A DNA stretch of 64,000 nucleotides from Psammoneis japonica (taxonomy: Eukaryota): contig QPGO01000088.1 of assembly GCA_008632985.1 (NCBI GenBank), forward strand, positions 248,001 to 312,000. The letters run 5' to 3'. The notes below the pieces were generated by a model. That model ran no database searches. It was given only the letters and a program-made list of their open reading frames with translations, and was not told the DNA's origin. The translations under genes were made by a program, and so were the position numbers. Of the stretch, positions 1 through 43,992 are shown piece after piece; position 1 is the first letter of the stretch; each line of letters begins with the position of its first letter.

Positions 1-2
1 AC

Positions 3-3360: not shown

Positions 3361-3561
<201 letters not shown>

Positions 3562-6500
3562 CAAACAAACAAACGAACCATTGCATCTGCTGGTGTTTGC
3601 TGTCTTTGACCCCATGACTGGACAGTTTGAAACACAGTCAAAAATCTCAACCAAGAGCACTCATGCCACATCGCCCCAACACTGTCAAGCAAGCCTGGCT
3701 GCACTGACACCCATGGCCAAGGAAGATCATCTTTGACGAGGGTGCCAAATTTGTTGCTGGCTAAATTTAGCCAGGTGACAGCCACAGAGCAACCATGGGG
3801 GGCTTCAAAAGAAAACTGGCATGAGCAAGCACATTTTACATGCAAATTCCTTGGCAGAGATTTGATCATTTTTGGCTCAGAATGTGGAGCTGGATGAGGG
3901 TGACGAGTGGAGTGGCATGAGCTCTCTCAGCAGTCACATTTGCGGTGAAAATGCCAAACAAAATTTGCCCAGAGCTGAAAGCAGGAGCTCACCACCTGCT
4001 CAAACAGCAAACAAGAGAGCTCCAAATGCAAAGAGTGCAAGTGTGCCACAGGGCAGCTGCAGCACTTGCTTTTCAAACAAGAGCAGAAAACTGGGCACAA
4101 GACTGACTGCCATGCAAACCCTGACTGTGCCCTGGCAGACACACGCATGTCAGTCTGTGTGGCAAACTGAGCTCCCCTGCCTGGCCCTCATCACAGCAAG
4201 GCATGCAGCAGCACAACATGCTGTGCTGTCAACAGGCAGACACCAGAAAATGCCATGTGATGTGAGAGCTTTCAACAGCAGAATGAAAAAAATGACACAA
4301 GCATGCTGTGGATGTTGTGCATCATGTCCTCATTGCACATGCTTGGCCCACTGAGCAGACATGTTGGTGTGCAATTGAATGCTGTCTGCAGGAAATGTGC
4401 GCTGCCCCAAGGACTGTGCACTGCACTGTGGCCCCCAAAGTTGTGCCCAGGTGTGCAATGAGCTTCTTTTGCAAATCCACACATTTTTCAGTGCTTGCCT
4501 TGTCTTAAGATGAACTTGGAGTGAACCAATTTGTGGTTGTGGACGGAGAAGCAGGTGCACGTGCAGCATCATGGGGTGAGTGCACAGCCCATGCAACCAA
4601 ACATTTTACAGCAAATTGTGCCAAGAAATTGGAAATGGCCTGACGCATGTCATCAACAGAAATCTTTGCATGGGCCCACTCTTCCATTTGTTGACAACCA
4701 AGTTTGGCAGAAAAGGCACACTCTGTTAAATTTGCAAATGCCAAGACTTTGTTGCTGGCACCTCTGGCAAACATGTTCTCTTTGTGCCACCCTGATGCAC
4801 ACAGGATAATTTGAAGAGGCTCTCAAAGCCTTCATTCCTGTGGTGTCAAATGCATCTTGCAAAGGCATCGCTGCAAATCTGACTGACCATTTGCATGAAG
4901 AAATGTCACGTTCATGAAGAGCAGGGGCACAGATGTGTCTCCACCAGCAACAAAACCCTTGTGTTGGATGGTGCCAAACTCAGGCAAATCAAAAAAGAAA
5001 ACTCTGTCTCCATGTTGTCTTCCTGGTTGTCACAAAAAGCCATCACATGAGTGCAGCACAGCTGGACTCCACACTTTGAGACTGAATTTTTGGTGTGCCT
5101 GTTGCTGATTTGGTGACCTCTTGCTCTGAGAAATGGTGCAGAGCATTGCAGCTGCTGGTTTCTTGCATGTTCTCACAGCCTCTGGGCAACCTCTCTGCCC
5201 CCCGGCGCACTCCTCACACTTGGCTTGAGCATTTGAGCTCATTTGGGTGACACTGAACTCTGGCAAGTCAACGACCTCACAGCATTGTTGATGGTGACAG
5301 CCTCTGGTGTGTGTGCTCTCACCCATGACACTCAATTCAGGAGCTCTTTACCCAGTGCAGACAAGACAGCTCTGGTGTCTCTGTGGTCTGGCACAACTGA
5401 CTCTGCCAGTCAGTTTGCAGACATCTTTGATGATGCCCAACAACATCTGAGCTGAGCAGTTGGCAGAAGGACTTTGACTTCTGATTTTGACCAACATTTT
5501 CATTTCATTCTGGCAGCTGGCAGCTGTTGCCAACAACACCTCTTGTTCAATTTGCAAAAAGAGCCATTGATGAGCTCCAACAAAGAAGCAGTTGGGAAAG
5601 CACAGCAAGCACACTTGCGACAATGTAGAGGATGCCTTGGCAAAAGGCAAACATGACTTTGCACAATTTGCCGCCAGGTGTGAGCTGCAATGTGGGCCTT
5701 GATTGACAAGAAGAACAATCTTTTTCATTTTGGTGCATCTGCAATGAGAGGAACAAACAAAACAATGCAAAAAGAAAATGCTGCTGTGAGCTTCTTGCTT
5801 CACTGATCAAGCTTTGATGTCTTTTTTGATGTTTGTTGCTTGACAACTGCACTGTCAGCACATTTCATTGCAGAGTTTTGTTGCCACACAAGCAAAAGCA
5901 TCATCAGCAATTTTCTGACCAAGCAAGCATGAGCCACCCTCCTGTCTGTGGCATGTTTGTCAGGCGTGCTTTGCACAACAGAAGTGCACTCCATGACTGG
6001 AAGAAGCTGTTGAATGTGAGCAGCCTGCATTGCTGTTGTGGTTGTCTGTCCATTCTTCATCAAATGACAGCTTGTGGCACCATGTGCCTGTTGGTTGCAA
6101 CTGTGAAACCATCCACAAATCAGCACAACTGCTGCTGTGGTGTGGCAACAAATGCCCCTCTCTCCATGGCTGCATCTCATCTCTGGGTGTTCTAAAATGA
6201 TGCACAAGTGGCCCAAATTGTGCACAATGTGTTCTTTGTTTTAGCAGCATTTGCAGCCCCCCCCGCACTTGTTTGTGACATGCTCTTGCTCTCAACAAGA
6301 AGAATCAAAATTTTTACACCTGTGATTGCACTTTCCACAGGTGTTGCAATGTTTTAAAAATCAACCAAGGTGGTCACAGCAGTTGTGATTTTGAATGATG
6401 TTCTGACACCGGCCCATTTTCAGCCAAAAAAAAAATCTGGCATTGCCAATGTTGTCAATTGAGGTCAATTGAGGTTGACAGTTGATTTTTCCAACAGTTG

Positions 6501-8469
6501 TAGATTTGCAATGTTTTGGTTTTGTGGCTTGGCATCTTGTTCAGAGTTGACCCATTTGTTTGGAAGAGCTTCAGCTCAACTCTCTCTGTTGAGTGTGTTT
6601 TTTGGTGTTTGTGCATCTCAGGCACCACACAACTCAGCTGCCAATCTGTTGTTTGCGCGACAGTGGTGCAGCACTGTTGCAATCCACTCTGTCCTCATTG
6701 CATGACTGACAACAACAAAAAGACTCTCACTTCAAAAGAACTTCTCATTGGACCAGCTCCCTTTTGACAGAGACAACACAATGACAAACTTGAATCCTTT
6801 CCTTCCATCCAATGTCAATTTGCACTCTGGAGCCCATCTCATCATGTCAAACAGCAGTCCCTGCAGTGGCCATGTTGTTGTTCAATCCCTGTCATCATTC
6901 ATGCTTCCTGCTTCCTGTTGCCGCAAGTGCACATCAATGACCAACTCAACCTCATCATCACATCACAGTCATTTGACAAATTCCAATGTCAACCCAGATC
7001 TTAGCATGGGTCAATCTGCACTTCATTCAACACCACTTTGAAGCTGTTGATTGGTGGCAAATGTGCTGCAAACATTTTTTGGGATGTCAAGTCATCTGGG
7101 CCAACATGGTTGCAAATTGATTTTGTGTTTTTGCTTTGGTCCGTGATTGCTCATTGCACTCTGTTTTGGCTCTGTGGCACAGCAGATTTCTGCTGTTGCA
7201 CACCAAATTGTGTCCACTGTCTGTGCAGCTCTTTCTCTGTGAGTGCACCAGCTTTGTCTCTTGCTGAAGATTTCAGAGGAATGTTCAGATGCTGTGCTTG
7301 TCCAAGTGTCAGCACCAACTTGCTTGTTAAATCCCACGTGGCTTGTGGTGGGAACCTGCTCAGGTTTCAAACCCAAAGACCACACCAAGAGTCCCACAGG
7401 GAACACCAACACCATGCAGCAAGCATCTTTCATGCATGAAAAATCTCTCAACAATGACATCTTGCTGCTGCAATGGCTGTCATTCCTGTTGAGATGGCAG
7501 ATGACACTGGCCATGTGTCTGCATGTGGGGGACACAATGCAAAGTTCCCACATTGTTTCCAGCATGAACAAATCCATCTGTTTTCCAACCAATGGCACCA
7601 CACACAGCACTGCAATTGTTGCTGTAGAACAACGCTGAATTTGCTGTGGAGAATCTTTCCATTGGAAAATTTTTTGATTGCCAAAGCTGCCTCTGACAAT
7701 TTGAAACTCACCTCCAGAGATGACCATGAGTGCAGATGTTTTCAGACATGCCTGAAAGCTCTGTCAATGAAGAAGACCAGGTGCATCTTTGTTGTTCAGC
7801 TTCCAAGTGATGAACACTGGCTCAAGTTTGAAAGGGGCATGCTGCATTGCCTGTCAAGGGAGAGGAGCTCAGCAATCTTGATTTGTCTCAATCGTTTGCA
7901 CTCAGCATCTTCATCTTGCCAAGTCACACTTGCAATGCAGAATGACAAGAATGAGACAAGCCATTGCATTGATCTTTTTTTAGTCACAAGCACATGAGCA
8001 ATGCCATGAATGCATCATTGTTTGATTTCATTTCTTCTTTAGAGTCGGATTGGTTGCATTGCCACAAGGAGAAAACACAGACAGCACTTCTTTTGAAGAA
8101 GATCTTCACTTGTTTCTTGTTTCCATGCAGGACAAGTGCTTGACAGAATCAACACAGAACCATCCAACATGGCATGCAGAGCACCGGCAAGAAATGCAAC
8201 CATGGCACTGCTTTTTCTTGCTTGTTGATCTTGGACGCATTGTGGTGGAAGCACACAGAGCCGCTGGTTCTCCTGACAATGAAAGGCAAAAAATGTGGTG
8301 CACTGGTGCAGGACAGGCGACAAATGAAAATGCAATTTCTTGCAAGAAAAATTGTGGAACAATGAAAAAGATGACAAAGAAAGTGGTTTCTGCAAGGTGA
8401 TGCAGGGACGGATGAAAGTGCAAAACACACACAGAAACCATCATCCAGACAGACCACCACTGTGATTCT

Positions 8470-10065
8470 CCTTGCAAGTGGTGGCACCCAGTTTGGAAGT
8501 TCTCAAGTCTGCTGCTGTTTTGGGCACAACAAGACACAAGGCCACAATGCCACAAGATCAAACTTGCAATGCCCAGCCACACTTCTCAAAGTGCTGCCTG
8601 GTGGCATTCACCAGCAGAGACCAACAGCATCATCTGCTGGCAGTTCTTGTTGGGTTGATTGGCAACATCATTGTGGGGCCCCTGCACTGGAGCTGGGAAA
8701 GTCAAGTCTGCTGCTGCTGTTGGTTGGGGACAAGATGATGTGGTGCCAGCACAACACCACAACATCAACCTTGCAGTGCTCAACCACACAGTTCTCAAAG
8801 TCACTCCTCAGTGCCCTCAGCTTGCAGCTGTCAGGTTGGTTGGTGCCACCACAGGGACCTTTTGCTCTGGTGTTTGGAGGTTCCTCAAGTCTGATCCTGT
8901 TCAAGACAAGGCAACATGTGGCCACAGCACCACATGGTCAGCCTTGCAATGCCCAACAACAGCTCTTGAACAAGTCTCACCCTGGATCTGCCAGATGCCA
9001 CCAGCATCCTCTGCCAGCAGCTGTCTCAGGTTGGTTGGCACTGTCATGTGATCCTTTCACTCTGGAGTTTGGAAGTTCAAGTTGGCTGGGGACACAACTC
9101 AACAACACCAACCTTGCAACATCCAGCTGCAGCTCTCAAAGTGGTGTCACCTGGGGTCTGCTGGAGACCGCCAAAGCCCTCAGTTTGCAGCTCATCAGGT
9201 TGGTTGGTGCTGCCATGGGATCCCTGTGCTCTAGAGTTGGGAAAGTCAAGTCTGCTGCAATTGGTAAAAAGGTGACATGGGGCCACAATGCCACCAAGAT
9301 CAACCATGCAATGCTCAACCACATTTCTCAAGGTGTGGCCTCTGGGCCCACCACCAGACACCACAAGCATGCTCTCAGCTTGCTTTTGTCAGGGTCCATC
9401 ATGATGGGGCCCTTTCACTCTGGAGCTGGGAAAGCTCAAGTCTGCTGTTGTTGGGGAGACAAGGCAACATGGGGCCACAGCATCACAAGATCAGTCTCTT
9501 GCAATGCCCAACAACAGCTCTTAAAGTGTTGCCTGTGGCCTGCCAGATGCTGCCAGTGTTCTGAGCTTTTGCAGCTGTTGGGTTGGTTGTTGCCAAGATG
9601 TGGCCCTTCAACTGTAGAGCAGGGCTGGGAAAAGTTCAAGTCTGCTCATCCTGTTTGGACAAGATGACATGGGGCCATGACCACACACAAGACAGGATTT
9701 GCTTGCACTGCTCAACCACGGTGGCTGTTGCAGCATCACCTGGGGTCTGCAAGAGACCACCAGCACCCCCTCAGCTTGCTGTTGTCAGGTTGGTTGGTGC
9801 TGTTGTGATGGGGTCCTTTGTTCATTCTGGAGTTGGGAGTTTGAAGTGTGTGCTTCTGGCTGGGAGGGTGCAACAGGGCACCACAACTCCACAACACCAG
9901 CGATGCACTGCCCAACACTCAGCCACAGTTCTTGGAGTGTTGCCTGGGTCCACCAGAGACAGCCAGTGTGCCCTTGGCCTGCATTTGCTTGTTCTTGGGT
10001 TGGTTGGTGCCATTGTGGGGCCACTTGACTCTGCTGAAGCTGAAGAAAGCTCAAGTCTGTGCTGA
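8470..10065. repeat. Degenerate tandem array, about 9 units of ~170-210 bp
   Basis: Recurrent motifs GGAGYTGGGAAAG(C)TCAAGTCTGCTG (~8490, 8689, 8876, 9064, 9232, 9422, 9622, 9829, 10041) and CAGCTGTCAGGTTGGTTGGTGC in each unit. Confidence 0.85.
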
Positions 10066-12949
10066 CCCACTGGCTGGAAACAAGACTGCACTGGCATGGG
10101 CAACCACTTGCCAGGGAGGAGAAACATTGCAGGAGGTGCTGCAGCAGCAGTGCCCCCATGTCTCTGGGTGCTGGCTCTTTGCAGGCACACATCCAGCACC
10201 ACGGGGTTGTTCTGCATGTTTGGATCAGCTGCAAAGATCAGCTGCAAAGATCAGCTGCAACAGCAGGCCTGCAGACACAAACAAACTGCAGCACAGACCA
10301 GCACAAATGTGAAAATTTCATTCTTGACAAGGGCCAACTGAGATCATAAAAACTGAGATGCAAGCCTTCTTCAAAAACAGATGTGCTGCATCTGACCAAA
10401 ACAATGATCAACACCCAGCTGCAAAACAAATGAGAGCTCACAACCAAACTGCATTGGCAATGAAGTCCGACAAAAAGAATCACACAGGCAACAATGACCA
10501 GGCCACCTGGCTCATCTCTGTGGCAAAAAGGCACATCACCGCCACACAAAACAACACAAAAACACAGGAAGATGCTTCCAAGCAGGACACAGACAATGAC
10601 AACATTGCAAAGCGGCACCAACAATGCCCAGGACTCTGCACACGCTAACAAAGAAATGCCATGGGAAAGGAAGAGGTCAGAAGTGTGACATGGGAGCAGG
10701 CAGCTTGAAGGAAACAACAACATTCCTTTTGCACTTTTTTGTCAAAAAAGTTGACAAAAGCAGCCAAGGACAAGAAATGAAGTGCTGCAGCATTGCACAC
10801 AGGCAAGCAGAAATGGCAGCATTGTGCCACACTTGCCAAATGAAACATGCCAAACTGACAATTTCTCTGCTGTCTTTTGCCAGGGATTTTGCTTTCACAT
10901 TTCACAATGAAGCACTGTCACAAAAACTGAATCTCTTTGAAACATGAAAGATTGGAGTGCACTGGCATGATGACAGCACACAGCCACGAGCACCAAGAGA
11001 TGCAAGACAGACTGCAAGAGACAACGGGAGACAGACAATGGGACTGTGGCAGCCTGAAAAGCAAAGAGAGCAAAGGCAATGGAACAACAGCATGGGGTGA
11101 GAGCATGAGGGCAGGCACCAAATGTTGAACACCACCAGGGCAAAAAGCAAACACCTTTGGAAAACAAAATTGCAAAATGCACGCCAGCTGACAAGTGACA
11201 AGCAAGCCACTCAAATTGTCAGCGTGCTCCAGCAAATGTGAGCAACAACAATTGGTTGGGTCAACTTGTTTGTGCATGTGCACAGAAATGAACCATGTTT
11301 CATTCATTGTGGTGGTTTCCTGTTTTGCCAATTTGGCTGCTGATTGACACTCCAACCTTCACAGTCATTGCACAACTGTGGCCAAGTTCAAAAGAAATCT
11401 CATCAAGAGCCTGCATGCTGTGAGACCAAATTTCCTTGAGAGTCTGGTTTCCTGCTTTGCCAATGCAGCCAATTGTCAAAATTGATCATTCACAATGAAC
11501 AAGCACTTGGCAAGAACACAGGCTTCTTCTTGTTGAACAAACCTCAACTCTGAACAAGAGCAGCTGCATTTTCCAGATGTTGGTGCAGCCAGCACAAACT
11601 GTGAGATTTTTCAACAACATGTTGGCCAATGCACACATCTGCTGAACATCATGCAGAGCTGTCTGGCCACTTTTTAACACAGTCACAGCAGATGGTGACA
11701 AAGAGACATGAGTCATCACAGCTGAGATGCACAACAAGCCCCCCATTGAGCAATTGTTGGTCATGTTGGCAGGGCTTCTAAATTTTCTCTTTTTGCACCC
11801 AAAAAACTTCTGCCAGCTTTTCAACCTGACATCAACACAACTTGCAACTTTCTCCAGTGGGAGAAGCACCTCAGCATGTAGGAGGACCACACATGCAATC
11901 CAGCACTGACCACACTTGTGACACATGGCACACCACACACCCCACTGCATGCTGCAGCCAGGAAAAAGAACCCCCTGTGCTGAAGTTGCCACTTGTCAGC
12001 TCAGGCACTCCCCCTTTTTCTTTTGTTCCACCTTCAACCCCAGCAACCTGTGGTCAACTTCTCCCACTTTCAACCCAAAAATGAGCACAAAGGCTTGCCC
12101 TCATTGACACACAATTTCTGGCCAGTGGCTGGAGATGCTCTTTCTTCTTTTTGCTCCAAAACTCCCTCCCTTTGATCACTGTCACTGACTTCAACAAACC
12201 AAGGGTAGCTCCCACCCCAGCAGTGCATTTGGGGTGAGATCAGCAGGCCCAGCAAAGGCCCAAGGGCCACTGCAGCACCACTGTGGGTGTCACCATGCTG
12301 CTCTTGCTGTTGCTCATTGGTGGCAGCAGTGTGTTGTGTCTCATGGTGTGGGGTTTTTCCTTCAATTGAGGTCATTCTCAATGAGTGCAGTTCACTGCAT
12401 CATTGCAATTTTGGCCCATCCAAGGGAAAGAGTGTGTTTGATGTCAGAGTGTTTGTGGCAAACCAGCCAGACTGACAAATGACACAGTGCACATGTGCTG
12501 CATCTAAAAAATGTCTCTTGCTTGCCTGCACAGGTCCAGCAGCAGGGCCCTGCGGCACACATCCATGTCATGGCAAAGTCAGCAATCCCAAATCTGCCAT
12601 CCACCCACAACAACAAACCAGTTCAATTCAACTCAATCTTAAAAATTACACAGCCCTTGCCAACTGCTGCCTGCCATGAGCTTTTTCACAATGCCTGATG
12701 TGCTGTTCAATCCACAACCATGGACAGGGTCAGAGCACATGTGCATGACTGAACAAGTGCAGCCCCACATTTGCAGTTGTGGGCAGAGACACTGCACAAC
12801 CAAAATGCCCAATTGAGATCTCAATCAGTGTCAAGAGAAGCAATGCCCAATTTTGCCACCAATGCTGCTTCCAGCCAATGCCATTTGCAGCCTTGATCTT
12901 CTCCCAGAATTTTTTCCATTGGCCCAGTGAACCACCTGGCAAGTTGGTG

Positions 12950-14060
12950 GTGGGAGGAAGGACAGTTGCAAATCTCTCCACACTCCTCTTTGACATGTCC
13001 ATCCAGAGTGCTGTGAGTTTGTAAAAGATTTTTGGATGCTGCCAAGTTGTCTGCACTCACTCAATGTTCCCACACATCCCAGGCAATGTCCTGCAAGTGC
13101 AGCACAATCAGAGTGGATGTGCCCATCACAGACCCATGTTGCATTGCTCCAAATGTTTGCAGCAGTGCTCTTGTTGTGTGTGAGCCCACTTGACAACCAG
13201 AAATCCATGAGCAAAGGAGCTGTTGCCAGCCATCTGTTGTGCCATGCATGCCTCTGTGACATGTCTGCACTCTGATTGGGTTGCTGGTGGAGGACTCTCT
13301 TCATGCCATGATGCAAGCAAACACATGGCTGCTGTTTTTGTGTCAGGGTGTGTGTGTTGCTTCATCAACCATTCTTCCAAGCCCTTGACATTTTCTCCCA
13401 AAGCTCTTGGGCTGCATGGGACTTGCAACGCAATGCATGGTTGATGTCTGTTTTCATCCGCACCACATTGCGGGTAAACTGGACTTTCTGTCCCCCCCCC
13501 ACCTGCACCGCAGGTTTCCATTTGCAGAAATGAATCCAGCTGGCCACTTTGGTTGCCAAAAGGTTGGGCAGCATTGCACTGCTCTGCCCAGTGCCATCAA
13601 GTTGATCTCAGCATGGGACAGTTCCACTCTGAGTTTTTTTGTCCAGTGGTTGGAAGGAGGTGGGCCATGTGTGTGATCCAGAAGTTGGGTCTTGTCCCAC
13701 TGTGTCATTGGAATTCCTCAAAGAGCAACTTCCCAAGTTTCTTGGGGCACGTCAAATGGCTCCAAAGCAGGCATGCTTGATGAGGCTTCCCAGCATTCTT
13801 TTTTCCAGTGAGTTCATTTCCACATTCAGCACTTCCAAACAGCTCAGTTGGCTGAGGATCAACTCCTGGTTGTGGTGTCCTTTGATCTGAGCTGGTGCAA
13901 CAATGATTGGAAGATCTTGCATCACACATCTGATCAGGTGGATTTGATCACAGTTGGTTTCTCTTAGATGGCAGTTGCAGTGGTTAAAGAAACTTGTCTG
14001 AAGAGCTGAGTCACAATCACATCCCTCTTCCGATGCAACAACAGGCCTTGCACATGCGTC
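12950..14060 (-). mobile_element. Decayed non-LTR retrotransposon (LINE) fragment with RNase H-like region and C-terminal Cys/His region
   Basis: Frameshifted peptides GCDCDSALQTSF...DLPIIVAPAQIKGHHNQE...LEVLNVEMNSLEK (RNase H-like xCDxxSAL / HxKGHQD), PQCGADE...HALRCKSHAAQELWEK...LEEWLMKQHTHPD, and DIAWDVWEH. Family assignment is from recalled motifs only. Confidence 0.6.
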
Positions 14061-14731
14061 ACAACTTCCAAAGAATTTCAAAGATGCTGCCCAATTCACC
14101 GCAGTGAGCACTCTGGTTGATCTCCTTGCCTGGCATTTGATTTGCTCCTTGACATCAGGAAGAGTGGCCTTCCAAAGAGACCAGTGTGATGGCCACTGTT
14201 GCCACAGTGTCCTTGATCCTTGTCCACTTCCAACCAGTCCAGCTCTACATCAAGATTGCGCATGGTTTCATTCTGCTCGAGGCTGTTCACACGCGCTGAA
14301 ACCAGTTGCTTGCTGGTCTCGAGGCTGCCATTTGCATTGCCCAACACATCATCAATGACCTTTCTTGCATCTTTCACTTTTTCCAACCGCTCTTTCCAAC
14401 ATTGGATGGTTCCTTTTGGAGCCTTGGGGAAGAGAGAAAGAAACGAATCCAAGACTTTGTCGTCATCGTGTGTGTGTTCACTGTCTGCATCTGCAGCGGC
14501 GGTGGTGCTGGTCATGACGACATGCTGACTGGTGCTGTTGGCACTCCCCCCCCCCCCCCCCCCGCCACTGCCTTTTTCCAACTCGAGAGCAAGTAGAATC
14601 ATCGTTGCTTTCGAGATTTTGTGTCATGTTGGAAGTTGCCATGATGACTGCGATGAGTGTGGTGCAGGGTGCACGAAGAGAAGACACCGGTGGGCTGACC
14701 AAGGGACGGGATTGCACTGGATTTCTATGAG

Positions 14732-14981
14732 GAAATCAGTGCTGACATGACAACATCAAAAACCGTCAGCTCCATGGAGCTCCTCAGATGCCATTGTCTC
14801 AGAATGTGGTGGGGGGCATGACCCGGTCTCAAGGCCACATGAGCACAAGTTTGCCTGACAAATGAAAATGTGTTTGAGACTGGGTCATGCCCCCCATTGG
14901 ATTTTGAGACAATGGCATCCAAAGAGCACCATGGTGCCTCGTGCTTCACCATGTTGTTTTGTCATCAAAAGGACAGATTTC
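14732..14981. repeat. Imperfect inverted repeat, MITE-like
   Basis: Left arm GATGCCATTGTCTCAGAATGTGGTGGGGGGCATGACCCGGTCTCAA (~14787-14831) matches the reverse complement of TTGAGACTGGGTCATGCCCCCCATTGGATTTTGAGACAATGGCATC (~14874-14919); weaker pairing extends outward. Confidence 0.75.
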
Positions 14982-15189
14982 AGACTGTTTTTGCTCACGA
15001 ATCATGTCAGCAATTCAGTCGGCAAGAACCCAAAAGTTTCCCTGTGTAGAAAATGCACCAATGGTCTGATTGTCTTCCGCTTGAATGGACCAAAATGCCA
15101 ACAGCACTCTTCATCACAACTCGTCGCCACCTGCTGAGGCCACAGCAGCAGTTGCAATTTTGATGAGAGAGCAACATTCGCCATCACAC

Positions 15190-18100
15190 TGTGGCTGCCA
15201 TCCCTCCTGCAGCTGCCGGCGGTGCACCTCCAGCGCTGCCCAAAACACATCACGACAAATGGATGGCCCAAGGAGATCACTTGGGCAGGGAATGTGCCGA
15301 CCTCTTCAGACACTGCGGCGCCACGGTTCCTGCCACCGTGCCTTCTGCCCTCCAAAGGCCTTCCTTGCTTTGGTTCATCACGGAGCAGGGTGTTGCATCA
15401 CCTGTGTCCACAGGCCCTCTGTGTGCATTCGTGACCCGGCAGACACCTCCCCTTGGGACGGACATGCACCTTGCTTCCAGGACAACATGCTGCCCGGGAA
15501 CTTCATCACTGTTCTCAAATTCCCCAACATGCCGTTCAATGCCATCGGTCCTCAGGTGGTGCCCACCGCAGCCAACATGGCCGCCTTAGAAAGCACGTCA
15601 CTCAATGACAATGATTTGATCCCACTGCAGACAGGCAGCGCACTGGATGCTGATGCCACTTGTGTGCCTGCTTGATCCAAGTGCCACATGCCTGTTTGCA
15701 CCTCATGCTCACACAGGACCTCATGCTGCTGCAAGCTTGCGCGGGAACTCGCAGGAGTGATCCAAAATGAAGGTCATGCAGGAGACCTCAGCCTTCTCAT
15801 GGACTGGCCACATGCAGTGCTCACTGCACATGCCACTGCCAATCTGGACCCGGTGCACTGCCCAGGTGACCAAGCCACCACCTGCCTCCACCAGCCATGG
15901 ATGCAAGCCTGCAAGAACACCGTTGGCAGATGCTGCTGCAGGACTTGCCCACATTGAACACTGCAGCCATCAACAACACCAACTGGGTGCCAGCATTTGC
16001 CAATGTCATCCGAGCCGATGCCGCGCGCAACAAAGCAATGCATGCTGCAGCTGCAGCTGCGGCCGCAGTGCCCAAGATGCCATTGGAAGTGTTCCTGCAA
16101 AATGCCACCAGTGTGGCTGCTGCTGTCGAGTGCACCAGATGACATGGCCTTGCCAGACCTGTGCCAGACGTGGGCGAACAGCACCAAGGCCGAGTGACAT
16201 CGATGCTTTGCACGCACCCTGGATGACAGGATTTGAACAAGATTTTAGTTTGTCACACATGATTGTGTGTGCTCTCAGTTCCGCGTGCGTCACGCGATGT
16301 AGTTTGCTTTCCGAGCCACAGAGCTCACAAGAACAACAACAGCAGCACCAACATCATGACACCAGTCTTTCGGCTCCTGTGACGGTCTCTGCATGGAGAC
16401 TCATCTGCTGTTTAGACAGCAGCAAGGAGTCATTGTTTTCTTCCACCCAGTCATCTTCATTTTCTGTCAGATTGACAGTCTTGCTCTTTGTTGTCCATTG
16501 AGCGTTCATCATCGTCATCGAGAAATTTTTCGACGACGCGCACCGTTGGCGGTGGAAGCACACATCTACCTTCTTCACTGCTGGATGCTGGATTAAATCT
16601 GCATGTTTGGATTTATCCGACACCTCCCATCGTTGGACACATTTGTTCAACGGATGTTTCTTTGGCCAGGAATTCCTGAATTCTCAGACATCTGAGATCC
16701 CGGATTCCTTGCAGTGGATCCTGCCAACACATCCGCACGCGTTCATGTGCACACAACACAAATCCCTAACTCTGGCTCTGCTCCACACATGCCAAGTCTA
16801 CTGCCTTGCATCTGCACCGGATTGCTGGTCTTCAAATTGCCCAACCTGGCTCTCAATGTCCACCGACGTGATGAACCCGTTGCCACCGACACTGTCTGCT
16901 CCAACACCCCTGCCATTGACTCTGGCTGCACCAGTGCCCAGCTCTTTGTCAGCACGGAATCTCTCATCACCGACGTGCATGGCACCAAAACTGACAAAGA
17001 ATTTGTCAATGCCCTCGAAGACAACATTCACAATCGTGGTGCCCCATCCAAGCTCATCAGCGACCGTGCTCAGGTTGAGATCAGCAACAAGGTTCTTTGC
17101 ATCCTTCATGCCCTCTTCATCTCTAGTTGGCAAAGCAAGCCCCATCACCAGCATCAGAATTTTGCTGAACGCCGCCACCAAACTGTGAAGACCATGGCCA
17201 ACACCATCATGGATCGCTTCGGTTCCCCGGCTTGCACCTGGCTGCTCGCCCTGATGTGCGTGTGTTTGTGCTCAACCACACGGCATCTGCCAAGCTCCAC
17301 TGGCGTGCCCCCACCAAGGTGCTGTCCGGCTCCACTCCTGACATCAGCCCGCTCCTCCACTTTCAATGGTGGGAACCCATGTGCTGCCACCTGGATGATT
17401 CTGACTGGCCGTCCGAATCCCATGAATTGCGTGGTCGCTTCATTGGCATCGCCGAACACGTTGGTCACCAAATGACATTTAAGATTCTTTCTGACGACAC
17501 TCAGAAGATTCTCTGCCATTCCAACGTGCACTCTGCCCATGATCCGTCTGCTCCAAACCTGCGTCTTGATCCTCCTGACAAGGAATCTGCTGACTCTGTC
17601 ATTGAATCCCGCCACGACTCCAAGAATTCGCCAGATTCACCAGATGGGGAGGCGATCAGGATGCCCAAAATGCCGGTCTTTGACCCCGAGGACATCACAG
17701 GACGCACCTTCCTCATGAAGCCACAAGAGGATGGACAACGCCACAGAGCCCGCATCGTCTAAGCCATTGAGGACCACGACTGGAAAATCGGAGGCAATCC
17801 TGAACTGGTCAAGTTCATTTGCTCCATCAACAATGACGAGTGCGAGGAAGTCCCAGCCTGCAACGACATCATGCACCACATTGAGCAAGAAGACGAGGAC
17901 TCAACTCTCTGGAAGTTCCGACGCATTGCATCTCACGAAGGACCATTGCGACCCCATGATCCCTCTTGGAAAGGCTCAAGCTACAACGTCATGCTTGAAT
18001 GGGAGAATGGGGAGATCACGTCCGAACCCCTTGCCATCATTGCCAAGGATGACCCCGTCACCTGCGCCATCTACGCGCGTGAGCACGGCCTTCTAGAAAC

Positions 18101-19900
18101 CGAAGGATGGAGACGTTTTCGCAAGATGGCACTTCGTCAGAAGAAGCCATTCCGCATGGCCAACCAAGCCAAGTTGCGCTCCTTTCGCTCTGTGCCATGA
18201 TGCAAGCATGGGCATGAAGTGCCATGGGACTACAAGCATGCCATGGCCCTTGATGAGTGCAACGGCAACCGCAAGTGGGGAGACACAACGGACCTCGAGA
18301 TGACTCAACTTGATGAGCACGAGGTCTTCCACGACTGCGGACACCACAAGGATTCCAGTGCTCCATCAGGACACAAGAAGATCCGGGTGCATCTCGTCTG
18401 CGATGTCAAACATGACGGACGGCACAAAGCAAGGCTTGTTGCTGATGGACACCTCACAGACGTGCCCGTCAACAGTGTCTGTTCCGGAGTGGTGTCCCTC
18501 CGTGGCCTGCGAATGATGACATTCCTGGCCGAACTCAATGAACAAGAGACCTGGGCCACTGACATTGGGAATGCCCACCTTGAAGCTGCGACCAAGGAGA
18601 AACTGTACATCACAGCAGGCCCCGAGTTTGGTGACCTGGAAGGACACATCCTTGTCATCCACAAGGCCTTGCATGGACTCCGCAGCTCCGGCCTCAGATG
18701 GCATGAACGCTTTGCCGATTGCTTGCGTGCTGAAGGCTTCTTCCCATGCAAGGCCAAACCCGACATCTGGCTGCACAGGAATGGCACGGGCTCAGGAGCC
18801 TGACGCGGCATCCCGCATTGCACCCATCGCATCCAAGGAGCTCTGTGAGATGGTCCTCCAAGGCAAGGTTGCACAGCACGTCCACCAAGCAAATGACTTG
18901 TCCGGCGGCGTGTCTCCCTTCACATGTGGGTTCTTCATGACTGGCCAAGGATCCTCAGTGCAAGTCTGCACGGAGTGCTGCAACCTCTCCCTGGCTGGAA
19001 ATCTCACCCCCATGGTTGCGGAACAAGAGGAGTTCTGCACCAAGGACACACCATTGTTGATGTCCACATGCCACTGTGGCAGCATGCTCCAGGGCACCAG
19101 CTTGGTTTTGGATGTCATCCAAGGTGAGAACCACCCGCGTGCTGCAGCCTTCCGTCAGTTCTGTCTGGAGGACTGGCACAACATGGTCGACCCACTGGAG
19201 CAACCCAGAACATTGTTGGGGGAAGGCAACATCCCACCCAGCATTTGCCGAGAGGTGCAGATGCTCGCTGCAATTCATGGTGACCTTCTTCCCAGCAGTG
19301 CAATGGCAGCTGCATCTTTGTTCACCATGCATCCGGTCTCACATCCTCATTGAACACCAAGTCTGTTTCTCTGCTGTCCAAAGCACGGGTCTGAGCAAAG
19401 CAAGCACATCACAAGACCATGGCTGTTCTGGATCACGGCATGATTGTCCAATCTTGCCTTGCCAACAGAAGCACTTTCAAAGCCAGCCAATTTGTTTCAC
19501 ATGCCAATGGCTCCCAACAATGCACATGCTTCTGTGGCACAAATGCTCATCTTCAAAATGGAGCTGCAGCATGTTGACTTGGTTCAGCACTCTTGGTGCC
19601 ACTGGGCTTTGTTCTGCCAATGTCTGCACTGGCTGCACCATCCCACACCAGCACTTGCATGATCCGCACATGCTGCAATGTTGTTCTGTCCATGTTTTTG
19701 AGCTTGCAGGAAGGCACGAAACTTCTGCACAATGGCAGCAATCTCTCATTGTGATGGCATGCCTTCTGGGGCTCCAGCAGCACCCACGCCAGTGGCAAGG
19801 TCTCTTTTGGCCCTGAGTCAGATGAGCTCACCCAAGTCCTCCAACAAGTCAGCTCTGGCCGTGGACACTTGACCATCTGCAAGTCAGCCATTGTCTGCTC
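15190..19900 (+). mobile_element. Decayed gag-like ORF of a retroelement (possibly DIRS/Ngaro-type), interrupted at ~16225-18783
   Basis: Peptide ...LPDLCQTWANSTKAE*HRCFARTLD ends at ~16224 and a compatible frame resumes at ~18784 as ARAQEPDAASRIAPIASKELCEMVLQG...NDLSGGVSPF. Superfamily is a guess from recalled similarity. Confidence 0.4.
16830..18783 (+). mobile_element. Ty1/Copia (diatom CoDi-like) pol fragment: integrase core to N-terminal RT, pseudogenised
   Basis: LNVHRRDEPVATDTV..., RGAPSKLISDRAQVEIS, HQNFAERR (integrase); WKFRRIASHEGPL, VMLEWENGEITSEPL; KIRVHLVxDVKHDGRHKARLVADGH, WATDIGNAxLEA, ALxGLRSSG, PDIW (RT). INT-before-RT order; stops at ~17760 and 18198; frameshift ~17270. No LTRs seen. 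Confidence 0.92.
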
Positions 19901-20815
19901 CATCCACGCCACCATCAACAGCTGTTGACATTCTTGATGTGTCTTTCTGCCAACTCCACCACAACATCTGCTGTGCCATGCACCAAGCCACTTGCTTCTT
20001 CTGTGCTCCAAGAACTTTTGCACAGTTGCAGCAAAGTCCTGGCAACAACAAATGGCTGCATTGATTGCTCCATTGATGCCAACTTTGATGATCCCTGTTG
20101 CGGCCAAAAAGACTCTCAAAACCTGGCAAACATCAAGTCTCACACCAGACATTTCATCTTGTGGTGCAAACAAGCCAATGTCCTCTTCTGTGGGTTTCTG
20201 AGCTGCAGATCCAGGTTGCACTTTTTGCTGTGGAAGCCAAGCATCTGCCACCACTGGCAACAGTCAGTGCACGACTTGATGCTGTGACCAGCAAAATTTT
20301 GAAACGGCTTCAGCTTCATGCACCACTCAGGTGCAAGAGCTGCAAGACACAAAATGCCACCAAGTCCAAGGCCTTTCTGCTGATGTAAAAGATGGAACAA
20401 TCTTGTCTTCAATTGTGCACAAGGACAGGCAAGTGTGCCTCAAGCTCTGAAAAATGCTGTTGGAGCTTTTGCCATGGTGCCAGCAAGCACACTGGCATTC
20501 CTTGTCACCACTGGTTCTGCCTGAGCTTGCAGGAACTGGTTCCCAGCTTGCTGATCAATTTACAAAGGGACTTGCTTTCAAGTCTGAATCTGGTCGGTTG
20601 ATCTTTTTGGTGGTGGTTTGGTTGCGTTGAGAGGGAGAGTTGACGTCTGTCTTTCATCCTTTTCATCCAAGCGCGACAAGGCGCGTTTCAAATTCGAAAC
20701 TCCTCCAAATTCCCCCATCAAATCTCTTTCAGTTACAATTTTCAGTCAGTACCTTATGCAAAAACAAGCTTTACTAGTTTACAACCTTGAGCTTCTGCTC
20801 ATTCAATGTCATAGG

Positions 20816-26694: not shown

Positions 26695-27660
26695 CAAGCA
26701 ACTGCTGAAGCTGTGACTTGGACAAGATCTTCATCCATGTCCTGCAATTCTTTGGCTTCCAGTTCTGTGTCCACCAAGAAAACAATCTTGCACCATCATT
26801 TCTCCAGCACCTTGTTGTTGTTGTTGAGCTTCTCCTCCCCGCCCCCCCACTGCAGGGGGTGCTGCACATCTCCACACACGCAACCCAGTGCAAGTGAAAT
26901 GACATGCAATCAATTTGACAAAAGAGATGGCTCATCAAGCTGTGACAGCATGGCTGCAAATGACTCCAGCTCTTGTTTGTTCACGTGTCAGCGCACAGCA
27001 TCCGGCTGGGCTGCCCCTGCCACTCTGCCAGCCGCCAGCAGGCCTGTTCCAGCTCCAGGTGATCCACTTTTCATCACGAGAGAGGCCGATTTTCTGCACA
27101 GTTTGGTGCAGTTGACTCCTTCGGCTTTGATCATTTCAAAAATTGAAAGGTGAGCGCGCACCTGAAAACACATGCAAAGTGCACACTTGCCCTTCGATTT
27201 GGCAAAAAACGGATTTGGAAAAAGTCAATTGCGCCAAATGCACAAATTGCCAAATGATGGGAATCGAACCCGCGCGGAGCACCTGGAGCTGGAACAGGCC
27301 AGCGGCAAAGCCATGTTTTGCATGATCTAATTGCACGTGAAAACAAACATTCACACAAGCAAAGGAACTCAATGCAAGAGCCACTTTTGTCGACAGAAGG
27401 GTGCAGAGATGAGAGCAGGGGGCAGAAGGGGGAGGACAAGAGAAACACACACAGGGGCCGGAGACGAAGCCGAAGTCGCTGAAGCTGAGCATCAAATGAG
27501 CTTCTCAGGAGGAGTGACAGTTTGAGCAGAGTCTGTGGTGAGTCATCTGAAGGTCAATCACGCGGCTGAGTTGACAGAGAGAGCAGGAGAGGAGACAGTG
27601 ATGATGTGGAGGCGAGATGCGATCATGGCGCAACGGCGCAACGAGGAATGCTTTTGCGCG
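26695..27660. repeat. ~1-kb TpA-depleted island (presumed transposon remnant) between two genes
   Basis: Roughly one TA in ~960 bp while CG is partly retained; flanks have normal TA content. Confidence 0.7.
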
Positions 27661-27938
27661 CACGTAAGGAGTCAGTCGCGCGGTCGGAGGGAGAAAACAG
27701 AAATCAAAAATGCGTAGGATTCTACGTGATTCTTTGGTACAGCATTACAAAAAATTGAACTTGTGCTCCGGCCTGTCGTCGCTCGTCGGTTGCCGACCGC
27801 ACAACCTAAACCGACCTGCTGAGCACAACACACGAAACACATCTCGCGGCGCACGCAACACCATCTGTGTAGTAGTTGGCTACATCTCTGTCTTTATAAC
27901 ATCCGAGTGTCTCTTCTCGTCGTATCAGCAGCAACAAC

Positions 27939-28289
27939 ATGGATCTTTCACAGCTCACCCCAGAACAGAAGCAGGCTGTCATGGTACAGGCTCAGCAAAA
28001 AATTAATGAAGAAATCATGCAAGAAATGATGCAGAAAATGACTGAATCATGTTTCCGCAAATGCGCAGGAACCTCTGTAAGTATTTTCGCTTGGATAACC
28101 AATTCAGCCGTTCGACCTCTGATTTTCTCAATCGTGTCGTGATTTCCTTCTTCTTGGCTCTATGTTCAGGGGGACCGATTGGATTCTCGTGAGCAAGCTT
28201 GCATGGCCTCATGCCAGGATCAGTACCTGGAAACACGAGCGCAGGTACAGGAAGCGCTTCAGAAAAGACAAGGAGGTGGCATGAGCTGA
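27939..28289 (+). CDS. Small Tim mitochondrial intermembrane chaperone (Tim8/Tim13-like)
   Basis: Intron 28077-28169; spliced peptide ...MTESCFRKCAGTSGDRLDSREQACMASCQDQYLE has the twin CX3C motif. Confidence 0.9.
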
Positions 28290-28429
28290 GTCCGTAAGAG
28301 AAGCTAGGTCAAAGTCCAACGTAGAATTTCTGCCTCTAAAAAGATTTTAAATGGATTGAGAATGTGCTGTACCGTCGCGCTACTAATATATGGAAGAGAC
28401 TCTTCGCCACAAAGGGATAATATATTTGT

Positions 28430-29716
28430 TCATTCTTTCATTTTCAAAAGGACAAAATTTCCCAAATGTTCTATGCTACACTTCGTCGCAAACATCAGTT
28501 GCGTATCGTCTTCTCCAACGTTGGAAAGATTCACCGGTACACATTTTCCCCGTAACCCGTAGTGTTCAAGCAGTATTCTTCTCAAAAGCGCTTTGCGTCG
28601 CCCTAGTTTGGCTGGGCTGAGAACCAACTTCACATCGTCCACAGACGGAAGTTGACTTATATCTAAATCTGCCTCTATTCTAATCAGCGCATCACGTGGT
28701 GTGCAAGCCGTCGCCAATTGCTGACGCGCAGTTGAAGGCTTTTTGGGTTTGCTCAGCTTTTGCTTTGCTTCTTGGTTGGCCACTCGCTTTTGGTATATCT
28801 TTGCGGCAAGCTCAGCCCGTTTCTGCTGTGCTTCCTTCATGGCTTGCTCTGATGAAGAGAACAAAATGTCTCGAGGCGTCTTTGTCTCCTGCGCTCGTTC
28901 CGTGATTGTGCTGCCATAAAGCGGGGAGTTTCGCTTTTCCTTTCTGTTTCTTGCTTGTTGCTTTTGTACGAGTGATCGTTTCCGATTCGCGTTAACGTAG
29001 GTCCGTATGGCATCTGCTATTTCTTCATTGGACATGCTAGCCAATTCCGGAGACGCCAATACCGACTCCGGTAAGGATTTGATTCGTTGAACCATTTTCT
29101 TCTGCTTTGCCAATTCCTTGGATATTGCTCGGTATTGCTTCGAACCCCATCGTTTTTCATACCACTTGGCCTTCCATTGGGGGTCTTTCCATTTTTTCTG
29201 CTGCGCCAGCGATCGACGTTTGGATCCAACCGGCGGTGCAAGGGGGAATTCAGTAAAGTCATTGCCTAGCGTTGAGGGGGATTCCTCTTCGACCTCTCGA
29301 TCCTCATCCACATCGTGTGTTTCAATACCAATATCTGTCGGAATATCATTTTGCATTAGCCTTTCAGCCTCGTTCACTTCGTCATCTGCTGTAGTCGTCT
29401 CGTTAACGATGTTTTTTCCGGCACTGTTCCAGTAGGCAAGTTCCTCTGGGTCCTCCCAAAAGTAGCCGTAAGTTGAGTCATATTGTGCAGATGATTGAAG
29501 GGCCAATTGTTTTCTTTTCTTTGCTGCTGTCCAAGAATTTATACGATTTCTCCTTTGGAGGTATGCGCGACACGCCAACAATGTTTCTTCGTCGGATATA
29601 GAGTCAAAATCAAACTTTGAGTCGCTTCCATCATCCGCTTCATCGCGAGGATTGATGCCTCTGGTGGTTGCTTTCATTCGAGCATATACTGTGAATTGCG
29701 CACCCCCACCACTCAC
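28430..29716 (-). CDS. Hypothetical basic/coiled-coil protein; start uncertain
   Basis: 428-aa open frame with normal composition; a signal-like MKTNALLLGLTCCVNSFQ lies upstream (from 29799) in another frame. Confidence 0.7.
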   Translation of the reverse strand: MSGGGAQFTVYARMKATTRGINPRDEADDGSDSKFDFDSISDEETLLACRAYLQRRNRINSWTAAKKRKQLALQSSAQYDSTYGYFWEDPEELAYWNSAGKNIVNETTTADDEVNEAERLMQNDIPTDIGIETHDVDEDREVEEESPSTLGNDFTEFPLAPPVGSKRRSLAQQKKWKDPQWKAKWYEKRWGSKQYRAISKELAKQKKMVQRIKSLPESVLASPELASMSNEEIADAIRTYVNANRKRSLVQKQQARNRKEKRNSPLYGSTITERAQETKTPRDILFSSSEQAMKEAQQKRAELAAKIYQKRVANQEAKQKLSKPKKPSTARQQLATACTPRDALIRIEADLDISQLPSVDDVKLVLSPAKLGRRKALLRRILLEHYGLRGKCVPVNLSNVGEDDTQLMFATKCSIEHLGNFVLLKMKE

Positions 29717-30104
29717 GCCAGGCCACGACGAGTTATTTGTAGATGCTGAAACGAGTTAACACAGCATGTCAATCCCAGTAACAATGCGTTTGTTTTCATT
29801 TTCGTTTCTCATTGACCAATCCAGTTGTGTGCGTTGTCGCTGTGCGATTTCACGCCTCAAAACCCTGACCAGGCTCTTATCATAAACTCGGGTATGGCTC
29901 TCATTTTATTTTATTATATATTTATGTACATTGGAAATAGATCATGAGCCACAAACTCGTACATTGTTATGCTGGATGTTCTGATCAGGGGGCTCTCAGC
30001 TACTACGGTGATTATCATTTTCATTCGGCGGCGGCAATGGCATGACTGTAGTCGCTCCATAAGACAAACGAGCTTCGTGAAAGACGTTGTATAACGAGAA
30101 AAAC

Positions 30105-34502: not shown

Positions 34503-34598
34503 TGGGTGCACGGAAGCACAATTCTTATAGATGTTGAACAGCCTTGTCAAATATCGCAGAGATGCTTCTCATCAGTGTTACAAGGGACTGATCAGGTT

Positions 34599-38800: not shown

Positions 38801-39066
38801 TGTTTTTTCTCTGGCGTTGGTGTCTGGTGTCGCATCCCGGTTCGTCGATAGGCGCAATTGCTTTAATATCTAGTACAATATCAAGCAGGTTTCTACATAC
38901 GCATTTATCTGTACATATGTATGGAGTCATCCGTTAAGCATGCCAGATGCCAGCCAGCAACAACGATCAAAAACGACGAGCAACCAAGACACAAACCAAA
39001 CATACCGTTCCGCTCGACCTGTAAGAGCTTTGTGTTAGCCTTCAATCATTGATCAAAATGACACTC

Positions 39067-43603: not shown

Positions 43604-43992
43604 GGTCGATGCAGAGTGGACTTCGCTTTTTAGTGTGCGTCGTGGAGGTTGGTGTCAACTCCAAAGATCTGCTTGCGAACCGAAACATCATCGCTACTAA
43701 AGAAAGGTAGTACTGGCTACATACGAAAATCTTGGTACATAAAACTACGGGAGTCCGACGTCATGATAACGTCATCGTGTCTCATCCGTCTGGCCAACCG
43801 TGCGGCAGGATGATGGAGCGAGCTGATGATTTGTGGCGATGAGCATGTTCAATGTGACGATGAGCAAGGAGCTGAGAGCGGCATGACGGAGGACAGTGCT
43901 CACAACAACAATACCACATTGAACACACGATATTCTGTTCGATGCAAGATCAAGAGGAGAGGAAGAAGAGGAGGATAAACCATTCTAAAAAA

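Follow-up and report, generated by a model that had tools for sequence, protein, structure and literature searches.

What decides which TpA (TA) dinucleotides remain in transposon-derived DNA of the diatom Psammoneis japonica from which nearly all the others have been lost? The 64,000-nucleotide stretch analysed here (the window) contains gene regions and tracts almost devoid of TA, and an earlier note on it suspected, from about ten TAs left in a Copia fragment, that the flanking bases matter. The features that bear on the question are:

2500..20500, no strand, left TA-erased tract, from TA counts per 500 bases; 60 TAs remain
16630..18791, plus strand, Copia (Ty1) polyprotein relic, integrase to reverse transcriptase, from tblastn of homologues and Pfam RVT_2
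26700..27500, no strand, 800-base TA-erased patch with CpG retained, within the gene-rich part, from 500-base counts
27600..46900, no strand, main unmutated gene region, part of the set used to calibrate TA frequency by context
47000..48000, no strand, short TA-erased stretch upstream of the young LTR element, from 500-base and class counts
47943..52686, plus strand, young half-mutated LTR retroelement, LTRs at 47943-48319 and 52310-52686; 90 TAs remain
52700..64000, no strand, right TA-erased tract, from TA counts per 500 bases; 46 TAs remain

There are 9-31 TAs per 500 bases in the gene regions (1-2400, 20500-26500 and 27600-46900) and 0-6 in the erased tracts, and in fully erased 2-kb bins (4001-20000 and 52001-64000) observed/expected ratios are 0.03-0.11 for TA and 1.5-2.2 for CA/TG. 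Within the window the erasure is confined to foreign or repeat DNA and host genes are spared. CpG-to-TG/CA decay is present too, uncoupled from TA loss: in 500-base counts of the left tract CpG is also erased at 2500-14000 and mostly retained at 14000-19000, and the patch at 26700-27500 has 7 and 1 TAs per 500 bases with 20 and 21 CGs. Among 179 ORFs the only Pfam matches above curated cut-off were those of the Copia RVT_2 hit, and this search of ORFs detected no coding sequence in the two large CpG-lost tracts. The erased tracts are full of long spurious ORFs, because TAA and TAG stops have been lost there, a warning to annotators.

The Copia relic is delimited by 70 full-length homologues, which map by tblastn only to 16630..18791, and by an RVT_2 match in the ORF at 18201-18800; it is disrupted by a frameshift near 17265 and by in-frame TAA (17760) and TGA (18198) codons. 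The earlier note's count for 16740-18610 is exact: ten TAs, of which the first five are CTAA at 16767, CTAC at 16799, CTAG at 17124, TTAA at 17480 and CTAA at 17760, and the last five CTAC at 17982 and 18072, CTAG at 18094, CTAC at 18231 and GTAC at 18606, so that nine of ten have a 5' pyrimidine. Calibration from Y-R steps counted within the region and TA fractions of the gene regions puts the expected 5'-pyrimidine share at 0.473; on this basis the binomial probability of at least 9/10 is 0.0068, and the exact multinomial probability over three strand-symmetric classes (observed 5, 4, 1; expected 1.8, 5.1, 3.1) is 0.043. The note's caution about small numbers was thus apt for the Copia region by itself (P=0.007 to 0.04). 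The confounding by C-ending codons that it also raised accounts for the region's 4:0 excess of YTAY over RTAR, a coding-strand effect, since three of the four CTACs are conserved Tyr codons following C-ending codons; window-wide these two contexts have 27 and 21 survivors. At least four of the ten TAs are ancestral survivors, as they belong to conserved Tyr codons, shared by 48-70 of the 70 homologues, and two others (the Leu CTA at 18094 and the Phe/Lys boundary at 17480) match conserved residues. No Tyr-to-Cys/His hypermutation was found in any of 115 Copia homologues. At the relic's codon boundaries in conserved Lys, Asn, Thr, Ile and Met columns there are 54 C/A, 2 T/G and 1 T/A, counts confounded by selection or codon usage and left out of the direction inference below; silent T-to-C changes appear favoured there, suggesting that the active Copia lineage was under some selection.

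Beyond the relic the preference proves strong and reproducible across the window, loss being earliest and most complete at RTAY and latest at YTAR. We scored TA survival per Y-R step by purine/pyrimidine (R/Y) flank class in 31 kb of TA-erased DNA. Because the process yields transitions only, R/Y coding is invariant and the denominators are fixed; Y-R steps number ~105-138 per 500 bases in most bins, whether genic or erased. Survivors in erased DNA are 57/1751 for YTAR, 27/2027 for YTAY, 21/1879 for RTAR (48/3906 for these two mixed classes together) and 4/1862 for RTAY. The control set (27600-46900, 1-2400 and 20500-26500) has 175/1556, 266/1774, 269/1748 and 300/1530 in the same order, ranking the classes oppositely (P=4.6e-24, or 7.3e-23 with the Copia interval 16600-18800 removed). 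Survival calibrated on this control is 0.29 for YTAR, 0.08 for mixed and 0.011 for RTAY sites, with the ancestral counts taken from host gene regions, from which transposons may differ in composition. Tests free of the control, on the TA share among Y-R steps in three tracts, give P=1.9e-6, 0.031 and 3.7e-7. The class order is the same in the left tract (YTAR:mixed:RTAY 21:17:0 and 9:12:1), in the right tract (26:17:3), which is an independent replicate, and in the half-mutated LTR element. Tract limits were set from TA density, and any unmutated DNA wrongly included would weaken the observed pattern. Codon bias cannot account for it in the two large CpG-lost tracts, as they have no detectable coding sequence.

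This context dependence extends two bases out, and not three. The erased/control ratio of TA share is 0.164 for R and 0.043 for Y at the +1 flank and 0.139 and 0.052 at +2, the second base weighing about as much as the first, and there is no effect at +3 (0.099 and 0.091) or +4 (0.091 and 0.098). Its range is seen at the extremes of the ten hexamer classes: YY-TA-RR is almost immune (TA present at 28/444 sites in erased DNA, 28/375 in control) and RR-TA-YY is wiped out (0/514 in erased DNA, 84/440 in control). By letter, hazards at the first flank are A 0.26, G 1.03, C 1.71 and T 2.77 in the erased tracts, A 0.23, G 1.12, C 2.30 and T 2.85 when only stable flanks are used, and A 0, G 0.19, C 0.39 and T 1.01 in the partial LTR element. 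They rank T>C>G>>A, A being the real outlier and the R/Y split only a first approximation.

The young LTR element displays an early stage of this hierarchy and dates the mutation relative to insertion. Its LTRs are ~92% identical, with transitions at 30 of 32 mismatches, and they differ at 6 TA-versus-CA/TG and 7 CA-versus-TG sites; since LTRs are identical at insertion, the mutation struck DNA after integration. The four TAs kept in both LTRs (GTAG at 48180, ATAA at 48258, CTAC at 48284 and TTAC at 48294) include no RTAY, as had been remarked. Its TA classes are 33:41:16 (YTAR:mixed:RTAY), against an expected 15.4:43.8:30.8, and at YY-TA-RR sites TA is still present in 9 of 85, against 7.5% in the control, so there is no early loss of this class. 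Its family runs to hundreds of copies, contig depth summing to 9,000-26,000 where single-copy DNA has ~60. Comparison of two sequencing runs with 48330-64000 at 80% likeness gave 1059 difference rows, and the places at which copies differ are A>G 187, T>C 204, C>T 198 and G>A 223, with 18-30 for each transversion type. A protein search with the element's ORF at 50831-51337 returned no matches, a HMMER search of representatives with that at 50370-50693 returned 35 weak matches, none below 1e-10 and too distant for conserved Tyr columns, and a degenerate 36-base pattern of the element matched nothing in a metagenome scan.

We favour, at a probability of roughly 0.55, an explanation in which a mutator restricted to TpA acts after insertion, attacks each strand's half-site separately at a rate set by the two 3' bases, and confers a risk that adds over the strands. 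Such a mutator would act on transposon-derived DNA, reading only a short local context and converting T:A to C:G within TpA to give TG or CA. Each half of the palindromic TA would be attacked on its own, and conversion of the A on one strand would be governed by the two bases 3' of it, in the order TA-YY > TA-YR > TA-RY >> TA-RR, roughly 27:18:13:1. With site risk the sum over both strands, RR-TA-YY would be fully erased, mixed sites would be intermediate, and YY-TA-RR (e.g. TTTAAA or CTTAAG) would be nearly immune. The chemistry would be deamination of adenine to inosine, which is read as G, although the sequence equally allows thymine-directed chemistry on the opposite strand; as a speculation, a 3' purine run might stack on the A and hinder its access or flipping. 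On hexamer classes in the erased tracts, an additive half-site model with four parameters has -lnL 514.7, compared with 513.8 for the saturated and 592.9 for the uniform model, and the fitted half-site hazards are 0.06, 1.45, 1.76 and 2.64 in the left tract and 0.07, 1.14, 1.63 and 2.64 in the right.

The alternative that survives best, which we consider unlikely but still worth weighing, is that RR-TA-YY is recognised jointly as one double-stranded palindromic site, either T:A pair then being changed at random. The favoured context is indeed a perfect palindrome in R/Y terms, and the multiplicative model that corresponds to joint recognition is not rejected in the erased tracts (deviance ~10.8, 6 degrees of freedom). 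There the additive model is better (-lnL 514.7 vs 519.2 by hexamer, 526.8 vs 529.0 by letter); in the partial element the multiplicative model is equal or slightly better (307.8 vs 308.4, and 302.0 vs 306.4). The models part at the immune sites of the erased tracts, where 28 YY-TA-RR survivors are seen, 27.8 are predicted by additive risk and 15.9 by multiplicative. The products bear on the same choice. At six sites the near and far flanks predict opposite products with at least 95% certainty, and the product is the one expected from the near flank, and hence from strand-wise attack, at five (16897, 17859, 18480, 47998 and 17697); the conserved Tyr at 18576 (cc-CA-cc) runs opposite to the near-flank prediction (model P=0.04). 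Over all 23 events of known direction (20 plus three Ile events, the 23-event lnL values being hand-summed) the directions are balanced overall, and lnL is ~-15.9 both for a model of unbiased direction and for the near-flank model. The further proposal of the earlier note, that on each strand TAY is edited faster than TAR, therefore holds against its mirror image (lnL -15.9 vs -27.7) and ties with unbiased direction (-15.9). Considering survivors and products, we infer that the near flank, and not joint recognition of the duplex, sets the rate.

That mirror image, in which editing of the A depends on the two bases before the T (RR-T-A*) and not on those 3' of the A, seems very improbable. It predicts a survivor table identical to that of the near-flank rule, near-flank, far-flank and unbiased palindromic models being indistinguishable by survivor counts alone, and its direction is followed at the Tyr site 18576 and at LTR site 52361. 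The direct events strongly disfavour it (lnL -23.4 vs -14.2 for the near-flank model on 20 events, ~-27.7 vs ~-15.9 on 23), and where one half-site is RR the excess of TG falls short of the TA lost (59.6 vs 83.2 where CpG is kept, 207.5 vs 233.3 where it is lost), control-calibrated values that weigh little. Other readings of direction were less informative. Splitting the CA/TG excess into TA- and CpG-derived parts by composition gave unstable or impossible values, and estimates of this kind are weak evidence only: the RR..RY class in CpG-kept DNA, for example, shows a TG excess where CA is predicted. Three duplicated pairs offered too few sites for comparison of concordant with discordant products, and self-comparison of the window in R/Y space found no paralogues beyond those from blastn.

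It is equally hard to credit that the remaining TAs are not survivors at all, having been regenerated later from CA or TG by C-to-T change or else kept by selection. The TAA at 17760, in a variable column with Gln in 10 of 70 homologues, could be secondary, from CAA, and the apparent favouring of silent T-to-C change at the Copia codon boundaries would fit some selection. Against this, four TAs lie within conserved Tyr codons and four are common to both LTRs. Moreover, the flank classes have almost the same CA+TG count (1607, 1888, 1743 and 1746), so random regeneration would not yield 57:27:21:4, and since YY-TA-RR suffers no early loss in the young element, immunity is simpler than loss and regain. 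That there is no real preference, the Copia pattern being small numbers plus C-ending codons before Tyr TAC, has next to nothing left to it: the region's own modest P values, its three Tyr CTACs and a 5' pyrimidine at 10 of 19 conserved Tyr columns are what one might cite for it, and it is contradicted by P=7e-23 without that region and by the same rule in two large non-coding-looking tracts and a young LTR element.

How does the strand-wise mutator we favour compare with known systems? APOBEC3 deaminates cytosine (C to U), usually in single-stranded cDNA, with a G-to-A strand bias. It likewise leaves hypermutated genomic relics bearing a deaminase-style footprint, a few bases wide and on a single strand, but the change here is A:T to G:C and falls on both strands of integrated DNA. 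RIP, in Neurospora and other ascomycetes, is repeat-directed, post-insertion and transition-only, with a dinucleotide target and graded neighbour preference, all features shared here. Its chemistry runs the other way: in RIP, TpA arises from CpA; in the present DNA TpA is destroyed, and CA/TG stands at ~1.9 times expectation. C-to-T change at CpA leaving TpA-rich relics is thus not what this DNA records, its relics being nearly TpA-free with CpA/TpG doubled.

Among adenine deaminases, bacterial TadA contacts U33-A34-C35-G36, and ADAR has a 3' G preference, which mismatches the T>C>G>>A order found here. The putative footprint here (T, A and two 3' bases) is of the same size as the TadA contacts and, as with TadA/ADAT2, there is a pyrimidine 5' of the target A: TA alone is lost, with CA accumulating, assuming that A and not T is attacked. 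The earlier note's likening of the preference to the UAC context of TadA-family deaminases is an analogy. The 5' base here must be T, because CA is product and not substrate. The TadA-8e A48E editor, as described in a review (PMC13109818), prefers a 'YAC' context; here the best 3' base is T (2.77), then C (1.71), the assignment to the 3' side being favoured rather than proven, and a +2 pyrimidine is preferred as well, a further difference from TadA/ADAT2. ADAR, according to the discussion of a recent preprint (bioRxiv 10.64898/2026.01.13.699255), prefers U 5' of the edited A, a likeness to the present system along with the A-to-G outcome. ADAR-type editing of RNA before integration cannot be the source, given that TA sites differ between the two LTRs of a single element (13 that are TA-derived or possibly so), and, unlike ADAR on retroelement RNA, the present process has also erased tracts without any retroelement signal.

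The nearest counterpart is that reported in the same preprint for integrated giant-virus and virophage DNA of Bigelowiella natans. Its main text describes only A-to-G and T-to-C changes, all at TpA, giving TpG/CpA products in foreign DNA only, and proposes an adenine deaminase (bioRxiv 10.64898/2026.01.13.699255). A:T to G:C transitions at TpA in foreign or repeat DNA are common to both systems. B. natans is a chlorarachniophyte, another lineage; the mutations there were measured in mutation-accumulation lines on viral inserts, Table S2 listing the 231 de novo TpA mutations, and here they are read in transposon DNA from the assembled sequence of one sample. What the present window newly adds is the rule for the flanks.

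That 2026 preprint is so far the one description of TpA-specific hypermutation of foreign DNA; it names no enzyme, and as far as its main text goes the context given is the dinucleotide alone, with no wider flank. A flank rule spanning about a hundred-fold range provides a testable specificity for candidate deaminases, and the flanks of surviving TAs constitute a sequence fingerprint of the putative enzyme. The rule also separates mechanistic classes, strand-wise single-base attack from recognition of a duplex palindrome. Survival of TA as YYTARR is a sharper genomic diagnostic than TA depletion, and could be used on any genome to gauge how common the system is. We suggest, tentatively and at somewhat less than even odds, that diatoms carry a repeat-directed, strand-wise DNA editor with a four-base footprint (T, the target A and two further bases), whose product direction is set by the near flank and whose fingerprint could identify the enzyme biochemically. 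Such an editor would favour pyrimidines at the two 3' bases and be refractory to purines, above all A, so that its fingerprint would combine immune YYTARR, erased RRTAYY and a product direction set by the near flank. If this is true, the fingerprint could show whether the B. natans system and the present one are a single ancient eukaryotic genome-defence module.

The window belongs to the genome of a photosynthetic eukaryote with few introns and carries genes for phosphoribulokinase, Vps18 (an ORF of 912 codons without interruption) and a MYND-finger protein. Dinucleotide counts in 500-base bins partition it sharply, with CA plus TG almost twofold in the TA-erased stretches.

Regions of the window
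1-2400, 20500-26500, 27600-46900: gene regions, 9-31 TA per 500 bases
2500-20500, 26700-27500, 47000-48000, 52700-64000: TA-erased stretches, 0-6 TA per 500 bases
16630-18791: Copia polyprotein relic, enclosing the 10 TAs of 16740-18610
47943-52686: LTR element, TA erasure half-way, 90 TAs remaining

CpG is gone too in 2500-14000 (0-6 per 500 bases) and 52700-62000, whereas 14000-19000 has lost TA and kept most CpG (10-30 per 500 bases), so TA erasure is not coupled to CpG loss. A lone 800-base TA-erased patch with normal CpG (26700-27500, no Pfam match) lies within the gene-rich region, and a tandem array of ~194-base units, 85-90% alike and of normal TA content (20954-22038), lies just past the edge of the left erased tract. 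In one sequencing run the contig depths sum to ~9,000-26,000 over the LTR element (within 48330-53036) and to ~52,000 over 61928-62973, against ~60 in adjoining DNA; both are very high-copy repeats.

As TA to CA/TG and CG to CA/TG are all transitions, the process leaves the purine/pyrimidine (R/Y) coded sequence unchanged. Genes and erased tracts have similar numbers of Y-R steps per 500 bases, and the two LTRs of the half-mutated element, with transitions at 30 of 32 mismatches, are nearly identical when R/Y-coded. No ancestor is therefore needed to sort the Y-R steps by whether purines or pyrimidines flank them, and survival was measured as the TA share of all Y-R steps per flank class.

TA among Y-R steps, erased DNA (31 kb) and gene regions
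YTAR: 57/1751 and 175/1556
YTAY: 27/2027 and 266/1774
RTAR: 21/1879 and 269/1748
RTAY: 4/1862 and 300/1530

Surviving YTAR:mixed:RTAY by tract (mixed, YTAY plus RTAR)
left CpG-lost tract: 21:17:0
left CpG-kept tract: 9:12:1
right tract: 26:17:3
half-mutated LTR element: 33:41:16, expected 15.4:43.8:30.8

The ranking of flank classes in erased DNA is reversed in gene regions, and control-calibrated TA survival is 0.29 for YTAR, 0.08 for the mixed class and 0.011 for RTAY (P=4.6e-24; P=7.3e-23 without 16600-18800). All four tracts show the same pattern, and control-free tests in three tracts give P = 1.9e-6, 0.031 and 3.7e-7. By letter, survival relative to control falls from TTAA (0.63), CTAA/TTAG (0.27) and GTAA/TTAC (0.12) through CTAG and CTAC/GTAG (0.09), ATAA/TTAT (0.06) and ATAG/CTAT (0.03) to GTAC (0.025), ATAC/GTAT (0.006) and ATAT (0), an order that also holds if the count is restricted to sites whose flanks are not mutable. 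Codon bias is excluded as the cause in the large CpG-lost tracts, because Pfam searches of their ORFs recognised no coding sequence there. The flank preference suspected in the earlier note from a few TAs is thus strongly upheld window-wide, and it widens to a hexamer rule.

With strands pooled, purine versus pyrimidine changes the surviving TA share 3.8-fold at +1 and 2.7-fold at +2, and has no effect on survival at +3 and +4. Among the ten strand-symmetric hexamer classes the extremes are YY-TA-RR, which is practically immune to erasure (28/444 in erased DNA, 28/375 in control, ratio 0.85; the 28 survivors are diverse and spread out), and RR-TA-YY (0/514 versus 84/440). In the young LTR element YY-TA-RR shows no loss (9/85) and RR-TA-YY is already down (2/73). 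Of 109 TA survivors in the erased tracts of the whole window, 10 lie in the hexamer TCTACA/TGTAGA and 21 in TACA/TGTA, some of which may remain from an ancestral TATA in which the other TA had been converted earlier.

The original observation was exact: 16740-18610 holds 10 TAs (two CTAA, four CTAC, two CTAG, TTAA and GTAC), and the TAs common to both LTRs are GTAG, ATAA, CTAC and TTAC. At 19 conserved Tyr columns, defined from 70 full-length homologues, the Copia relic has Cys 7, His 7, Tyr 4 and Trp 1; four of the 10 TAs are therefore true survivors. Two more agree with conserved Leu and Phe|Lys, and the TAA at 17760 may have arisen later. The confounders anticipated in the note, small numbers and codon bias, apply to this segment alone, where the bias is modest (9/10 with a 5' pyrimidine, P=0.0068; three strand-symmetric classes, P=0.043) and partly a codon effect, since three CTAC are Tyr codons preceded by C-ending codons. 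Among pyrimidine-ending codons of the relic, the third position is T in 2/117 before A, in 26-34% before C or T and in 64% before G, and across 57 columns with conserved Lys, Asn, Thr, Ile or Met just 2 T|G amino-acid changes are seen. Silent T-to-C changes therefore seem to be favoured, and part of the relic's TA loss may have occurred in a still-active lineage under selection.

LTRs of one element are identical when inserted, yet this pair (47943-48319 and 52310-52686) differs at six TA-versus-CA/TG sites and seven CA-versus-TG sites. The changes must hence have arisen after integration, in the DNA and on either strand, rather than in RNA ahead of reverse transcription.

Survivor counts are blind to which flank governs, because the risk of a site sums over both strands; the governing flank can be read from product direction. 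Ancestor and context are known for 23 events (14 conserved Tyr codons, three conserved Ile codons and six LTR differences), whose direction is balanced overall. If the bases 5' of T govern, lnL is -23.4 for the first 20 events, against -14.2 for the bases 3' of A and -13.9 for unbiased direction; with the three Ile events added the values are about -27.7, -15.9 and -15.9, and the far-flank model is therefore rejected. At six sites where near and far flank make opposite predictions with at least 95% certainty, five follow the near flank, that is, change at the A that precedes pyrimidines, and one the opposite. The suggestion that TAY is edited more readily than TAR on each strand therefore beats its mirror image, but a palindromic, direction-free model fits equally well, and the strand-wise mechanism is favoured but unproven. 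Direction estimates from base composition are unstable because CpG decay yields the same products.

A four-parameter additive model, each half-site contributing its own hazard (RR 0.096, RY 1.29, YR 1.74, YY 2.62), fits the ten hexamer classes near-perfectly (-lnL 514.7; saturated 513.8, uniform 592.9), with almost the same parameters when left and right tracts are fitted apart. A multiplicative model, in which the flanks are read jointly, is poorer in erased DNA (519.2), predicting 15.9 YY-TA-RR survivors where 28 are observed, but is equal or slightly better in the partial LTR element; additive action is favoured, not shown. The +1 letter hazards are A 0.26, G 1.03, C 1.71 and T 2.77, so 'TAY versus TAR' is a fair first approximation; the true outlier is A, with TAA, and TAAA most of all, refractory.

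RIP has chemistry opposite to TA erasure. TadA has a footprint the size of that seen here; its preferred letters differ. A review describes a 'YAC' preference as possible in TadA-derived editors (PMC13109818). TpA-erasing hypermutation has been described in Bigelowiella natans in a 2026 preprint (bioRxiv 10.64898/2026.01.13.699255), whose main text gives the target as the TpA dinucleotide alone and lacks the words 'context', 'flanking', 'trinucleotide' and 'tetranucleotide'. A literature search on TpA hypermutation and diatom transposable elements found nothing else relevant. The new element here is the flank rule.

Surviving CpGs in 2500-14000 and 52700-62000 show a flank trend the reverse of that of surviving TAs (Y-CG-R, Y-CG-Y, R-CG-R, R-CG-Y = 13, 24, 28, 33; expected 22.5, 27.6, 25.4, 22.5; P=0.022), and decay there seems quicker where a pyrimidine precedes C. 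Both strands of the erased tracts 2500-20500 and 52700-64000 are rich in long stop-free frames because TAA and TAG disappear. Just one of 179 ORFs of at least 90 codons in and around these tracts has a credible Pfam match, and such frames are a pitfall for gene prediction.
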